Of a stretch of DNA of 64,000 nucleotides, positions 1 to 58,696 are shown in pieces (the first letter of the stretch is position 1; the number at the start of each line of letters is the position of its first letter). This stretch comes from Patescibacteria group bacterium. GTDB taxonomy: Bacteria; Patescibacteriota; Minisyncoccia; UBA6257; 2-01-FULL-56-20. Under the pieces are notes generated by a model. It did not search any database and was not told where the DNA came from. It was given only the letters and a program-made list of their open reading frames with translations. Made by a program: the position numbers and the translations under genes. The stretch lies in assembly GCA_018971305.1 (NCBI GenBank), contig JAGXBC010000003.1:92325-156324 (forward strand), in the 5' to 3' direction.

Positions 1-48
1 TTGAAAAATCTCCTATATTTTGTAGAATGTGAATGAACCTGTTTTTAT

Positions 49-104
49 GCCCCCGTAGCTCATCCGCCAGCTGGCGGAGGTAGACCTGCCTGCCGGTAGG
101 CAGG
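49..104 (+). pseudogene. tRNA-Lys 5'-fragment-like element: 14 nt matching the tRNA-Lys acceptor/D-stem, then a 16-bp palindrome, then ggtaga and a GC hairpin; no T-arm
   Basis: gcccccgtagctca(49-62) matches tRNA-Lys 188-201 with one mismatch. The palindrome 63-78 sits where tRNA-Lys has gtc. ggtaga(79-84) matches 205-210. A 6-bp stem with an 8-nt loop at 85-104 is not a canonical anticodon arm. Confidence 0.4.
63..78. repeat. 16-bp perfect palindrome TCCGCCAGCTGGCGGA (copy 1)
   Basis: The sequence is self-complementary and contains CAGCTG. An identical copy lies at 325-340. Confidence 0.9.
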
Positions 105-187
105 GCAACCCCCTTTTATGAATGACTTCATAAATCTGGTTCGCTCATTGAAAATGAAAATTGATTTAAGAAAGTTGTGTCCAGCGT

Positions 188-260
188 GCCCCTGTAGCTC
201 AGTCGGTAGAGCAGCTCCCTTTTAAGGAGATGGTCGCAGGTTCGATTCCTGCCGGGGGCA
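188..260 (+). tRNA. tRNA-Lys (anticodon TTT)
   Basis: Cloverleaf: acceptor GCCCCTG/CGGGGGC, D-arm GCTC-AGTCGGTA-GAGC, anticodon loop CTTTTAA, variable TGGTC, T-arm GCAGG-TTCGATT-CCTGC, discriminator A. CCA is not encoded. Confidence 0.9.
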
Positions 261-297
261 CGCTGTACGGAACAAATCAGTTTTCATTTTCACTTCG

Positions 298-360
298 CTG
301 CCAGTTTTAAGGAGATGGTCGCAGTCCGCCAGCTGGCGGACGATTCCTGCCGGGGGCACA
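298..360 (+). pseudogene. partial duplicate of the tRNA-Lys 3' half (anticodon loop to 3' end) with the 16-bp palindrome replacing gtt in the T-stem/loop
   Basis: ttttaaggagatggtcgcag and cgattcctgccgggggcac are identical to tRNA-Lys 220-239 and 243-261. The palindrome 325-340 is inserted between them, so the T-arm cannot form. Confidence 0.55.
325..340. repeat. 16-bp perfect palindrome TCCGCCAGCTGGCGGA (copy 2)
   Basis: Identical to 63-78. Confidence 0.9.
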
Positions 361-397
361 AGTGTGCAGTAAGTGTTTTTTGTAATATAATAACGCG

Positions 398-988
398 ATG
401 AAATTTATTATCGGCATTGATGAGGTGGGCCGTGGTTCTCTTGCGGGGCCCGTGACCGTGGCAGTGGCTTGCATGCCTTGGAATTTGAAAATTATTAACC
501 GTTCTTTGGGGAAATTAAGAGATTCTAAAAAACTTACCGCGAAACAGCGAGAACGCTGGTTTAACTTCTTTAAGAATCATAACGGGATTAATTGTGCTCT
601 GGCCCGCGTCTTCCCTCGGCAGATAGAAAAGATAAATATTTCGCAGGCGGCCAATCTTGCAGCCTTAAGGGCTTATAAGAAATTGAATTTCAAATTAAAA
701 ATTTCTAATGCCAAGATCTTTTTGGACGGGGGGTTGTTTTTGGGAAGGGGCGAACAGCCGAAAAACGCCAAAACCGTCATAAGGGGCGACGAAAAGATAA
801 GAGCCGTATCTATTGCTTCAATAATAGCTAAAGTATCCCGCGACAGGGCCATGGTGCGGTTAGCGAGAGTTTATCCGCAATATGGATTTGATGTTAATAA
901 GGGATATGGAACCAGAAAACATCTGAAAGCGATAAAGAAGCACGGTCCGAGCAAGGTTCATAGATTGACTTTTCTTAGGTTTTCTTAA
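398..988 (+). CDS. rnhB: ribonuclease HII
   Basis: N-terminal IIGIDEVGRGSLAGPV motif and the overall RNase HII pattern. Confidence 0.9.
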   Translation: MKFIIGIDEVGRGSLAGPVTVAVACMPWNLKIINRSLGKLRDSKKLTAKQRERWFNFFKNHNGINCALARVFPRQIEKINISQAANLAALRAYKKLNFKLKISNAKIFLDGGLFLGRGEQPKNAKTVIRGDEKIRAVSIASIIAKVSRDRAMVRLARVYPQYGFDVNKGYGTRKHLKAIKKHGPSKVHRLTFLRFS

Positions 989-1176
989 AAATTTTTTGCC
1001 AGGGGTGCTAAGAATTTTTTTAGAAAACGTTAGACCCCGCCATCGGCGGGGTACTGGCTTGCTCCATGGGATTTATTATGCTACTATAAAATGGTCGTAA
1101 CAAACAATAATATAATCCCGCCAAGGCGGGATGCTCAATTTCGCAGCCAATCACTGCGTTCTTGGGCAAAATTGGC

Positions 1177-1329
1177 ATGGGTGGCGTACCAGTAAAACAT
1201 CATTCAAAAGGAAAAGTTGGCCGCAGGCGTTCTCATTTGGCGTTAAAGAAACAGCGTCTTTTTGTTTGCAAGAACTGCGGTGCTCCGAAACCGTCTCACA
1301 GGGCTTGCAAGCATTGTGGCAAGACTTAA
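1177..1329 (+). CDS. rpmF: 50S ribosomal protein bL32 (50 aa); absent from the ORF track because it is under 60 aa
   Basis: Manual translation gives MGGVPVKHHSKGKVGRRRSHLALKKQRLFVCKNCGAPKPSHRACKHCGKT. It has the RRSHxAL motif and a CxxC...CxxC zinc ribbon typical of bL32. The listed ORFs 1131-1334(+) and 1151-1378(-) are in other frames. Confidence 0.8.
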   Translation: MGGVPVKHHSKGKVGRRRSHLALKKQRLFVCKNCGAPKPSHRACKHCGKT

Positions 1330-1368
1330 CGTAAAATGGTTCTACGTTTCCCAGCTCTTTTCTAACCA

Positions 1369-1833
1369 ATGGCAACAAGGCATTTAATCAGAACGGTAAT
1401 CCTTCAGTCCCTCTACGAGTGGGATTTTTATAATCAAAAACACGACCTCGTTGCTATTTTGGACAGGAATCTGGCGGAATTTGCTCCCGGGATAGACGAA
1501 CCGGAATTTGCCTGGAAAATACTTAAGGGAATGATAGATCATATTAAAGATATAGATAATGTTATCGTGAAGGCCGCCCCCGAATGGCCGCTGGATAAGA
1601 TAGCCATCATAGACAGGAATATTTTGCGCATCGGGCTTTACGAGCTTTTATACGCTGACCAGAACGAGGTGCCTAAGAAAGTTGCCATTAACGAGGCCAT
1701 AGAGCTTGCTAAAAATTATGGCGGACCAAATTCCGCACGTTTTATAAATGGAGTTTTGGGGACTATATATAAAGAGCTTGATGATAGCCATATGCAGGAA
1801 CAAAGCATAAAAAAGGAATCAGCGGAAAAGTGA
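1369..1833 (+). CDS. nusB: transcription antitermination factor NusB
   Basis: NusB-like helical protein with the RIGLYELLY segment and N-terminal arginine-rich region. Confidence 0.8.
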
Positions 1834-16317: not shown

Positions 16318-16521
16318 TCTGTTTCGCCGGCGATTAATAAAAAAACAACCCCGATAAAATGCCTAGGCAAAATTATCGAGGTTTTTATTATCTGCCCGCT
16401 GATACCCAGCCGCTTGCGGCGGGGATGAAGCGGTGCGCAGATAATAAACCCCGCCGACGGCGGGGTGAATAACCGCCTTACTGCAAATAGATACCGCGCT
16501 GCTTGCAGCGCGGTTATTCAT

Positions 16522-44854: not shown

Positions 44855-44892
44855 AGCTCAAGAAGCTTACGTCCGTAGTGTCTTGAGTTTCA

Positions 44893-44915
44893 CCCCGCCG
44901 ATGGCGGGGTTTATT
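44893..44915 (+). terminator. rho-independent terminator CCCCGCC-gat-GGCGGGG plus a T-run
   Basis: Hairpin and T-run after the ABC exporter gene. Confidence 0.65.
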
Positions 44916-57028: not shown

Positions 57029-58696
57029 ATGCTCGCCGATGAACTGAAACAATTTTTTCACGGAGACGTTCTTGACGATGGAAAAACCCTCGCGACCTAT
57101 AGCCGCGATTATTCTATTTTTAAGGTGAAGCCGCAAGCAGTAGTTTTTCCGAAAAACGCAGAAGACGTTAAAAATCTGGTGAAATTTTCAGTTAAGGCGA
57201 AAGGATCCGGTACGGACATTTCGCTCACCGCTCGTTCGGCCGGAACGGATATGTCGGGCGGACCCCTGAACAATTCCGTAATAGTGGAATTTGCCAAATA
57301 TTTCAATCAAGTAAAAGAAATTAAACAATCCGCGGAAGGTGGTTCAGCCGTAGTCCAGCCGGGAGTTTATTTCCGCGATTTCGAAAAAGAATTAAAAAAA
57401 ATCGGTTTACTATATCCGCCCTATCCCGCATCTAAAGACTTGTGCGCCCTTGGTGGAATGATTTCCAATAATTCCGGCGGCGAGAAAACTCTCGCTTATG
57501 GGAAAACGGAGGATTATGTAGAAGAGTTGAAGGTAGTCCTGAGCGATGGCGAAGAACACACTATAAAACCATTATCCAAAGAAGATCTAAAAACAAAAAT
57601 TCAAGAAGATGGTTTTGAAGGCCGATTATATAAAAGAATTTATGAATTAATTGAAAACAACTACGATGCCATACGCGCAGCGAAACCGGACGTTTCCAAA
57701 AATTCGGCAGGTTACTATTTGTGGAATGTCTGGGATGGGCAAACATTTGATTTGAATAGATTGTTCGTCGGTTCCCAGGGAACGCTGGGTTTGGTTACGG
57801 AGGCCAAATTAAGGCTGGTGAGGGAGAAAAAATACAGCAGATTGGCAGTGGTGTTTTTGAAGGATCTTGCGCCTCTAGCCGATCTTGTGGTGGAAATCCT
57901 TAAATTCAAACCGGAAAGTCTGGAATCTTATGACGACAAAACGCTGAATGTAGCCCTGAAATATTTGCCCGAAATCGTTAAATCTATGGGCGGACATTTC
58001 TTCAAACTCATCTGGCAGTTTTTGCCGGAAGCGATGATGGTTTTGCGGGGTGGTTTGCCCAAAATGGTGCTTATTATTGAATTGAACGATGATGACAGCA
58101 ACGAATTAGAGAAGCGGCTTTTTGCTTTGCGAGCGGCCGTAAAAACATTCTCCGCCAAGAGCGGCGGAGTACAGGCGCGCATTCTTAAAAGCGAAGAAGA
58201 AGCGGAGAAATATTGGACAATCCGCCGCCAGAGCTTCGCTCTGCTTCATAATCATTCTATTAATAAAGATACGGCGCCGTTTATAGACGACTTAATAGTC
58301 AAACCGGAATATCTGCCTAAATTTCTTCCAGAACTTAATGTTATTTTGGATAAATATAAAAAAGATCTGGTGTATACTATCGCAGGTCATCCGGGCAACG
58401 GTAATTTCCATATTATCCCCTTAATGGATTTAAAGCGGGAACGCATCCGCGCCCTCATACCCAAGATATCGGAAGAAGTTTATAGCCTGGTCTTTAAATA
58501 CAAGGGTTCTATAACTGCGGAGCACAATGACGGCCTGATCCGCACCCCGTATCTGGAAAAAATGTATGGCAAAAAAATTGTAGAACTTTTTGCAGAGGTC
58601 AAGAAAATTTTTGACCCGCTTGATATTTTCAATCCCGGGAAGAAAGTTGGCGGCAACCTGGATTATATGATAAGTAAGATAGAGAGTTCAAGATAG
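57029..58696 (+). CDS. FAD-linked oxidase/dehydrogenase (PCMH-type FAD-binding; GlcD/D-lactate dehydrogenase-like)
   Basis: N-terminal FAD-binding domain pattern and a C-terminal FAD-oxidase domain. Confidence 0.7.
   Translation: MLADELKQFFHGDVLDDGKTLATYSRDYSIFKVKPQAVVFPKNAEDVKNLVKFSVKAKGSGTDISLTARSAGTDMSGGPLNNSVIVEFAKYFNQVKEIKQSAEGGSAVVQPGVYFRDFEKELKKIGLLYPPYPASKDLCALGGMISNNSGGEKTLAYGKTEDYVEELKVVLSDGEEHTIKPLSKEDLKTKIQEDGFEGRLYKRIYELIENNYDAIRAAKPDVSKNSAGYYLWNVWDGQTFDLNRLFVGSQGTLGLVTEAKLRLVREKKYSRLAVVFLKDLAPLADLVVEILKFKPESLESYDDKTLNVALKYLPEIVKSMGGHFFKLIWQFLPEAMMVLRGGLPKMVLIIELNDDDSNELEKRLFALRAAVKTFSAKSGGVQARILKSEEEAEKYWTIRRQSFALLHNHSINKDTAPFIDDLIVKPEYLPKFLPELNVILDKYKKDLVYTIAGHPGNGNFHIIPLMDLKRERIRALIPKISEEVYSLVFKYKGSITAEHNDGLIRTPYLEKMYGKKIVELFAEVKKIFDPLDIFNPGKKVGGNLDYMISKIESSR

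Follow-up and report, generated by a model that had tools for sequence, protein, structure and literature searches.

Positions 49-360 of a 64,000-nucleotide (nt) stretch of contig JAGXBC010000003.1 from a Patescibacteria group bacterium (assembly GCA_018971305.1, contig positions 92,325 to 156,324, forward strand; 45% G+C; called the window here) hold a complete but dead tRNA-Lys(UUU) gene whose anticodon loop is split by a 186-bp insert at 119-304, and this insert carries an intact tRNA-Lys at 188-260 flanked by an inverted repeat. Judged from sequence comparison, the palindromes that interrupt the dead gene, the nesting of one tRNA within another and the inverted repeat are hallmarks of a recurrent class of cassettes, most of which encode a GIY-YIG nuclease of about 80 amino acids (aa). 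The window locus would be a member of this class without an open reading frame (ORF), either decayed or non-autonomous. Taken as a whole, the explanation that we prefer, with moderate confidence, is that the resident gene was split, that the insert belongs to this cassette class, that it is an ORF-less relic, and that the class spreads through nuclease-made breaks.

A dead tRNA-Lys split by an insert bearing a live one

The dead outer gene is called the ghost in what follows, the 16-nt palindrome TCCGCCAGCTGGCGGA is P16 and the 20-nt palindrome CCTGCCTGCCGGCAGGCAGG is PAL20; L-numbers label the comparison loci that were fetched, with L001 and L002 denoting Logan contigs. The tRNA pieces, the insert with its two arms and the promoter-like match described below all lie on the forward strand, and the palindromes and the junction hairpin are strandless.

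The ghost begins with GCCCCCGTAGCTCA (49-62, tRNA positions 1-14), in which C6 forms a Watson-Crick pair with the ghost 3' strand; the repeat finder aligns 48-62 with 187-201 at 93% identity (14/15 bases). A first copy of P16 (63-78) then replaces G15-T16-C17 in the D-loop, and the gene continues, by direct reading, with GGTAGA (79-84, positions 18-23). The first-pass annotation, made from the window's letters, had described this upstream copy as positions 1-23 with GTC replaced, which is right as far as it goes, but had ended it at 84. The piece in fact runs on past a second palindrome, CCTGCCTGCCGGTAGGCAGG (85-104), which is a variant of PAL20, perfect save for one G-T pair, and sits in the D-arm between positions 23 and 24, 2 nt away from where the perfect form is found elsewhere (21|22). 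Behind it the ghost resumes as GCAACCCCCTTTTA (105-118, repeat D2), matching positions 24-37. Homology to the tRNA stops at 118 and restarts at 305, rather than at 298 as first proposed, with TTTTAAGGAGATGGTCGCAG (305-324, positions 33-52, 100% identical to 220-239). The second copy of P16 (325-340) replaces G53-T54-T55 in the T-loop, and CGATTCCTGCCGGGGGCAC (341-359, positions 56-73 plus one following base, 100% identical to 243-261) completes the gene, so the description of the downstream copy as the tRNA 3' part with GTT replaced otherwise stands. Because the upstream piece runs on to 118, the two outer pieces make up one whole tRNA.

P16 is a perfect palindrome with two exact copies in the 64 kb, at these two sites and nowhere else, as the first reading had it; the count stays at two when two mismatches are allowed, and 0.01 copies are expected by chance. 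As regards dispersal in the manner of repetitive extragenic palindromes (REP), bacterial interspersed mosaic elements (BIME) or miniature inverted-repeat transposable elements (MITE), P16 is thus confined to this locus within the window, and PAL20 is dispersed in other genomes and in viral contigs.

When the palindromes and the insert are removed and GTC and GTT are restored, the ghost agrees with the inner tRNA at 71/74 positions and is recognised by ARAGORN as tRNA-Lys; without GTC and GTT there is no ARAGORN call. The ghost acceptor strands, GCCCCCG and CGGGGGC, pair perfectly, whereas the inner tRNA has U6-G67 at this place. Its anticodon stem is weakened by two derived substitutions (positions 27 and 29), and its D-loop and T-loop lack 3 nt each. 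The perfectly paired acceptor strands and the derived substitutions in the anticodon stem make the outer gene look like the old resident, now dead.

The inner gene, tRNA-Lys(UUU) at 188-260 (or 261), is called by ARAGORN and by Rfam (RF00005, 72.6 bits, E 1.5e-15), in agreement with the first-pass annotation, and its sequence suggests that it is presumably functional. Its leader (136-187) and trailer (261-304) are mutually complementary: repeat I3 (149-167/274-292) is 95% and repeat I4 (174-192/255-273) 84% identical between its arms, and the complementarity score of 16.5 is the maximum of the whole data set. TTTTA stands at both junctions of the insert (114-118 and 305-309), and a hairpin, TTTATGAA-TGAC-TTCATAAA, can be read directly at the left one (115-134), where it forms part of the predicted fold. 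With the insert came, or arose, a complete replacement tRNA-Lys that has an inverted repeat around it. An ancestral tRNA-Lys split by an insertion with a replacement tRNA had been proposed at the outset, and the completeness of the outer gene, its paired acceptor strands, the promoter-like site upstream of its 5' piece and the recurrence of the nested layout in other loci all support this proposal. The sole sigma-70-like promoter match in 1-450 is TTGAAA-16-TAGAAT at 1-28 (10/12 positions), some 20 nt upstream of the ghost 5' end, and nothing comparable precedes the inner tRNA. Rfam finds tRNA only in window positions 1-1500, with no Intron_gpI or other family, and the spacers of the insert showed no significant similarity to other loci.

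A chimeric join or a collapsed repeat at a conserved tRNA would be a trivial source of such a layout, and it draws some support from the Logan contigs L001 and L002, both of which begin at window position 216, inside the tRNA; the 5' piece is supported by the metagenome-assembled genome (MAG) only. Against this, two independent Logan assemblies (SRR32006840 and SRR32006849) reproduce the window from 216 on, with the 3' piece and the second P16 copy exactly as in the MAG, and the 5' piece has its PAL20 at a position typical of unrelated assemblies from other projects. We suspect that the contigs break at 216 because tRNA-Lys k-mers are shared with other organisms in the metagenome. An assembly error, a doubt already voiced with the first-pass annotation, is hardly credible on this evidence.

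Hairpins, nesting and a small nuclease in related loci

The genes upstream of rnhB, which follows the locus, differ in every relative examined. Synteny is thus not conserved there, and relatives were therefore sought through the tRNA itself. The RnhB of the window is 100% identical to an NCBI protein named "Patescibacteria group bacterium"; a search via RnhB for an uninterrupted orthologous tRNA-Lys led beyond this to a nearest homologue of 68% identity and provided no empty site. The tRNA-Lys 3' half with any T-loop filler of 3-30 nt was scanned for in a genome collection to which the source genome does not belong. This returned 57 Patescibacteria loci, 57/57 of them with normal GTT. Dead copies lie beside the live tRNA-Lys in eight of the 57 (L065, L070, L084, L089, L092, L093, L104 and L107), and in five of these eight a small GIY-YIG ORF lies after the dead 5' piece and before the live tRNA (PF01541, E 1e-15 to 1e-16). 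The dead copy of L093 has the perfect PAL20 after GGTA, 2 nt from the site used in the window. Those of L104 and L089 have TCAGCC-AGA-GGCTGA and TCCGCC-TTG-GGCGGA in the anticodon loop, and the latter shares the stem of P16. The closest in layout is L070 (Ryanbacteria), which has no ORF and is nested as in the window: an outer GCGCCCGTAGC, an 11-bp leader, the inner tRNA, a complementary trailer and the rest of the outer gene follow one another. In its outer gene a hairpin replaces an anticodon-stem strand, and the acceptor stem of its inner tRNA differs from the outer one. L065, like L070 and the window, is without a GIY-YIG ORF.

A second set of loci was based on the nuclease and comprises 80 metagenome loci and three viral-contig loci fetched likewise (83). 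A same-strand tRNA starts between -15 and +200 nt from the ORF end in 59/83; the tRNAs include Lys, Asn, Arg(CCU/ACG/UCU), Val, Pro, Ser and Met, and in 46 of the 59 the tRNA 5' end is present a second time upstream of the nuclease ORF. Across about 140 fetched loci, from Patescibacteria, Nitrospirae, Omnitrophica and Bacteroidota, two families of hairpins, TCCGCC-loop-GGCGGA and CCTGCCTGCCGGYAGGCAGG, occupy loops of dead tRNA copies that have a live tRNA next to them, usually with the Slx1/UPF0213-like GIY-YIG gene separating the dead 5' piece from the live tRNA. In nine cassettes compared with Rfam, tRNAs were the only matches. The nuclease stop codon often falls within the 5' end of the live tRNA (L093 4742-4990, L092 1205-1447 and many of L186-L250), where it is the TAG of the conserved GTAGCTC and the C-termini read like ..LLRP*, ORF and tRNA being fused without a spacer. 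At L168 (the same locus as L162; 833-1416) the tRNA copy downstream of the GIY-YIG ORF is broken in the anticodon loop, after ..GGTTGGCTGT, and a group I intron lies at 1182-1416 (RF00028, 86 bits), so that this cassette sits before an intron-containing tRNA gene.

The hairpins are placed with considerable regularity. Dead copies contain 84 GC-rich hairpin inserts, 47 of them in the D-arm, 25 in the anticodon loop, four in the T-arm and eight elsewhere. PAL20 stands exactly at 21|22 (..GGTA|PAL20|GAGC.., ..GGATA|PAL20|GAAT..) in about 30 loci, whatever the tRNA: it does so in dead copies of tRNA-Asn, tRNA-Arg(ACG/CCU/UCU) and tRNA-Lys, and also in MAGs named Nitrospirae, Omnitrophica and Cyclobacteriaceae. 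The 617 kb of fetched loci contain 39 instances of TCCGCC-N3-4-GGCGGA, 32 of which have an intact tRNA within 400 nt. Hairpins of this type, whose TCCGCC/GGCGGA stem is that of P16, are found in the D-loop (L189, and L191 as CAGCT|..|GGTTA), in the anticodon loop (L171-L185 and L256) and in the T-loop (L185 as GGTCGCAGGTT|TCCGCCAGAGGCGGA, L186 as GGGTT|TCCGCCAAAGGCGGA). The T-loop hairpins have the stem of the second P16 copy and the same loop of the tRNA as their site, and TCCGCCAGAGGCGGA, present in L185 and L256, differs from P16 in its own loop alone. The first-pass annotation had raised the alternative of a small palindromic element that targets GTY within tRNA-like sequence. The presence of hairpins of one stem (TCCGCC-N3-GGCGGA) in D-, anticodon- and T-loops of dead copies agrees with this in part, but GTY is not the target, because elsewhere the hairpins are pure insertions at 17|18, 36|37 and 55|56 with GTC and GTT retained. 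The 3-nt losses are peculiar to the window locus.

Which hairpin a dead copy carries goes with the nuclease. Where the nuclease is at least 57% identical to the L104 protein, TCCGCC/TCAGCC hairpins are present in 22/22 loci and PAL20 in 1/22; below 57% identity the figures are 3/67 and 37/67. Since the hairpin family co-varies with the nuclease clade and not with tRNA identity, the hairpins belong to the cassette lineage rather than to the tRNA.

Nesting as in the window recurs in L070, L191, L171-L185, L252 and L256. L191 has ghost halves that are paired together (GGTCGCG ... CGCGACC), its inner tRNA-Val has GGATCTG ... CAGATCC, and D-loop sequence with a hairpin pair is found at both junctions. 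In L171-L185 and L256, AGCTCCCTTTT|hairpins|AAGGAG.. appears twice, left of the ORF and again right of the live tRNA, and L252 has the same arrangement of flanking repeats, but with PAL20. L185 also contains a separate full-length ghost tRNA-Lys (575-765) with six hairpins, four in the anticodon loop and two in the T-loop; about 1 kb from this stand-alone ghost, the contig has a second cassette, which bears an ORF. A leader/trailer complementarity score of at least 10 is reached by 7/14 nested loci, by 0/33 loci with a 5' duplicate only and by 2/74 other tRNAs (one of which is that of L070). The complementary sequences themselves vary between loci. The trailer of L256 is the reverse complement of its 16-nt leader, and this leader is also duplicated upstream of the ghost, a pattern that looks like fold-back copying primed by the acceptor stem.

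The L256 leader duplicated together with the tRNA 5' part suggests a local event, and one might explain the window in the same terms, as a local duplication by slippage or template switching followed by decay, with no mobile cassette and with palindromes and inverted repeat made by quasi-palindrome template switching or by independent hairpin elements. The window has no nuclease gene, its ghost and inner tRNA differ at 3/74 positions only, PAL20 is widespread without a nuclease, and GC-rich hairpins of similar style (ACCCCGCC-N3-GGCGGGGT) exist elsewhere in the window. However, two identical 16-mers at two sites cannot both come from local fold-back, the inner tRNAs of L070 and L191 are clearly no copies of their ghosts, and the same two hairpin families return at identical loop positions across many tRNA species and unrelated genomes, co-varying with the nuclease clade. 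We consider a purely local origin unlikely.

The region 36-360 could also be a composite RNA maintained by selection, a precursor or scaffold in which the outer halves and hairpins serve as a processing platform, a decoy or a regulatory RNA; leader and trailer might, for instance, form a long duplex for RNase III of the kind known from rRNA operons. The inserts do lie in loops and not in stems, hairpin stems vary by compensatory substitution (TCCGCC/GGCGGA against TCAGCC/GGCTGA, as in L175), leader and trailer stay complementary although their sequence differs between loci, and the predicted fold of the 331-nt region is very stable (-162.9 kcal/mol, z = -10). This stability, however, follows automatically from a region made largely of repeats and palindromes and is not itself evidence of function. 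Moreover, the ghost anticodon stem and both elbow loops are damaged, dead copies in the relatives end at variable points (positions 27 to 53) and gather mismatches, and no Rfam family matches. A selected composite RNA appears improbable to us. Local duplication and a structured precursor both fit the comparative data less well than a cassette does.

Proposed spread of the cassettes and the closest known systems

The ORFs of the cassettes are stand-alone GIY-YIG domains of about 80 aa, comprising the catalytic domain only. Among solved structures, they come closest to two UPF0213 proteins, 1ywl (E 5e-11) and 1zg2 (E 5e-10), and to SLX1 of eukaryotes (E 4e-5), and the cassette nucleases score under the cut-off of the intron-endonuclease family. 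At E <= 1e-12, 917 protein clusters match, under generic names ("GIY-YIG nuclease family protein", "putative endonuclease"). Many members of the family are on very short contigs (500-1000 bp), which suggests that the cassettes routinely break short-read assemblies.

We propose that the cassettes spread via nuclease-induced breaks in tRNA genes that are repaired by copying, for which the tRNA sequence itself would provide the homology arms. In the window, the live tRNA-Lys would be transcribed from the ghost promoter within a highly structured precursor of about 320 nt and cut out by the normal tRNA-processing enzymes. The palindromes may be scars left by the cassette or its cis elements, perhaps recognised as cruciforms by a structure-specific nuclease, and may incidentally hinder ghost function or clean recombination with the live copy. 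The idea of a cruciform substrate fits because of the relationship to Slx1, the duplications centred on hairpins and the co-variation with nuclease clade. A bolder version, which we hold only tentatively and think possible rather than probable, is that these are selfish cassettes crossing phyla, in which a nuclease of about 80 aa without a DNA-binding domain is guided by structure and not by sequence, settles in tRNA genes and preserves tRNA function through a live copy that it duplicates or imports; its cis elements, the near-invariant GC-rich palindromes (CCTGCCTGCCGGCAGGCAGG, TCCGCC-N3-GGCGGA, TCAGCC-N3-GGCTGA), would extrude as cruciforms or hairpins in the displaced copy and be cut there, and the window would be a non-autonomous relic. 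Cuts at extruded hairpins would yield hairpin-centred duplications and fold-back inverted repeats around the live tRNA.

Several observations weigh against the cassette explanation. The 64-kb window has no GIY-YIG ORF by tblastn, and no GIY-YIG remnant was detected in the 69-nt spacer (a profile of 75 ORFs gave 2.1 bits on 105-200). A candidate remnant, FKKV... in comparison with FLKKVL at the L092 C-terminus, was rejected, the resemblance being within chance. The loss of 3 nt at GTC and at GTT is not seen in relatives, and exact P16 in a tRNA context was found nowhere but in the window (viral contigs, the 57-locus scan and 617 kb of fetched loci). As to recent mobility, the fetched loci include no pair of filled and empty sites, and the one cassette seen across samples has the same gene context in all eight places shown (24 contigs). 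A promoter was found upstream of the dead copy in 13/43 cases and just before the live tRNA in 14/43, compared with 24/215 control windows. The notion that hairpins act as general homology breakers is weakened by uninterrupted blocks of 36-37 nt in loci of the L171 type. Finally, 47 IMG/VR viral-contig stretches (L121-L167; 29-73% G+C, up to six copies per contig) contain PAL20 or its GGTAGG variant, at 56 sites, without a small GIY-YIG gene nearby, L162 excepted. With PAL20 this common in the absence of the nuclease, the hairpins may be independent, perhaps mobile, elements that merely accumulate in dead tRNA sequence.

Among known kinds of element, the window locus comes nearest to the selfish, nuclease-associated cassettes of tRNA genes, for which SegB is the nearest characterised system; the window locus itself is probably an inert relic. 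SegB is a phage protein of about 220 aa with a DNA-binding part. It is the free-standing GIY-YIG homing endonuclease of the tRNA gene cluster of phages T4 and T6 (PMC2330249; PMC13096335). Its recognition site includes the conserved motif found in the T-psi-C stem-loop of tRNAs (PMC2330249), and it cleaves within tRNA genes and is enriched beside tRNAs (PMC13096335). It drives the inheritance of itself and of neighbouring tRNA genes (PMC2330249; PMC13096335) and the recombination-dependent amplification of tRNA-containing segments (PMC13096335). The cassettes have in common with SegB a GIY-YIG nuclease gene physically tied to tRNA genes. They differ in that their nucleases are catalytic domains of about 80 aa, closest to UPF0213/Slx1, in bacterial chromosomes across phyla; palindrome-marked dead tRNA copies and a live tRNA nested in a dead one are absent from the two SegB papers (PMC2330249, PMC13096335), and the window locus, unlike a SegB locus, is without a nuclease gene. 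Tandem cassettes, with two or three GIY-YIG ORFs of the family within 1-2 kb (L177 1162-1768, L253 901-1641, L195, L199, L200 and L225), recall the segmental amplification driven by SegB in phage T6. Cultured phages gave no match to PAL20 in a tRNA, and Rhizobium-phage relatives of the protein are not beside tRNAs; nothing was found in plasmids.

The UPF0213 (YhbQ-like) and Slx1-like domains (PDB 1ywl, 1zg2, 7cq2) resemble the cassette nucleases in being minimal GIY-YIG domains. Minimal Slx1-like GIY-YIG domains of bacteria have been described, but that account connects them with neither tRNA genes nor palindromes (Dunin-Horkawicz et al. 2006, PMC1564403). In eukaryotes, Slx1 cleaves DNA in a structure-specific manner, and cis elements that form cruciforms or hairpins would suit such an enzyme; the cassette nucleases may thus act on hairpins. 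A coupling of small GIY-YIG genes to hairpin-marked dead tRNA copies was not found described in open-access full texts, the palindrome strings included.

The first-pass annotation had likened the locus to the attachment (att) sites of integrative elements, and a remnant of integration and excision by a tyrosine integrase, whose crossover in the anticodon loop left duplicated parts, has to be weighed. The 3' piece does start exactly in the anticodon loop, which is reportedly a classic crossover sublocation for integrases, and tRNA 3'-end fragments lie downstream of tRNA-Lys in other Patescibacteria (L101, L109, L076). The window locus and tRNA-targeting integrative elements or prophages thus share a tRNA target, a partial duplication, function kept by a supplied copy and a break in the anticodon loop. 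Yet such elements supply the 3' part alone, displace a single 3' fragment, are kilobases long and encode an integrase, whereas here a whole tRNA is supplied, both old halves are kept (the 5' piece with positions 1-37 included) and the pieces are 186 bp apart with no gene between them. No integrase is noted among the first genes of the window (rnhB to smc), the recurrent partner in the relatives is the small GIY-YIG nuclease, and palindromes in the loops are not predicted by an att site. The att-site analogy is therefore not supported, and we judge such a remnant very improbable.

Introns offer a further comparison. In archaea, according to the account of Fujishima et al. (2009, 2010) in PMC10714607, transposing short tRNA introns and split tRNAs likewise involve related inserts in the D-, anticodon- and T-loops of several tRNAs, but those inserts are introns that are removed from functional genes at bulge-helix-bulge (BHB) motifs. 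Removal of the palindromes in the window restores no recognised tRNA, and here, in a bacterial host, they sit in copies that are truncated or decayed. An intron of either the group I or the BHB kind was accordingly rejected for the window, 1-1500 of which has no ribozyme core or Rfam intron. Short GC-rich palindromes suspected of mobility in an AT-richer genome are also familiar from mitochondria, as the PstI palindromes that flank tRNA genes in Neurospora and as the GC clusters of yeast. These are organellar and stand between genes, not inside tRNA loops, and we know of no link between them and GIY-YIG cassettes.

For the window genome, the consequence is that this locus has one working tRNA-Lys(UUU) and a dead shell, and that annotation, att-site prediction and repeat-aware assembly should treat it accordingly. 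More generally, the locus points to a widespread, sharply defined pattern that lends itself to experiment, in which minimal GIY-YIG genes are wedged at tRNA genes and palindromes that hardly vary mark the displaced copies at fixed structural positions. If it is these palindromes that the nuclease takes as its substrate, one of the smallest nuclease domains known would form the core of a mobile element guided by structure. The colonisation of essential single-copy RNA genes by selfish elements that do not kill the host would then become directly testable, many short broken metagenomic contigs around tRNA genes would be explained, and part of the large UPF0213 family, now annotated generically, would gain a function.

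Palindromes outside tRNA genes and neighbouring features

The viral copies of PAL20 are mostly intergenic, 28/56 lying inside long ORFs that make up 86% of bases. Some are bracketed by direct repeats, of 8 nt in L124 and of 14 nt in L130, or have iteron-like repeats around them. In L151 (2239-2330), a GC-rich viral contig, PAL20 is in the variable loop of a tRNA-Met(CAU) (AGG|PAL20|TC), which ARAGORN calls as a 92-nt tRNA, and the same tRNA-Met(CAU) has PAL20 in place of TCGCCGGTTCGAA in L123 (8560-8660). A palindrome of the PAL20 type is also present in L006 (279-298). The P16 16-mer was found in 55 stretches of viral contigs, none in a tRNA context; going by their flanks, most stand in GC-rich sequence that looks like coding DNA, and a few belong to unrelated hairpins.

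Many Patescibacteria have a non-coding segment of about 160-230 nt downstream of tRNA-Lys (L101 442-790, L109 4926-5155, L076 6755-6920), and a similar one is seen in L078, L081, L093 and L174; in L101 it occurs twice in tandem. It begins, behind a terminator-like hairpin, with an inverted copy of the tRNA 3' end (GTGCGCCCGG.. + hairpin + ..CAGGAATCGAA), and its far end is a direct copy of the tRNA 3' end (GATTCCTGCC..GCAC). Rfam gives no match to it.

In the window, rnhB (398-988) directly follows the tRNA locus, as the first-pass annotation had stated, and is followed in turn by rpmF, nusB, rnc, a DUF805 gene and smc. The hairpin ACCCCGCC-N3-GGCGGGGT has three intergenic copies (1034-1052, 16448-16466 and 44892-44910), and related CCGCC...GGCGG hairpins are found at 1115-1132 and 58150-58169, mostly without a T-run. 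The core of all these hairpins resembles the P16 stem, and they may be terminators or stabiliser hairpins of the organism.

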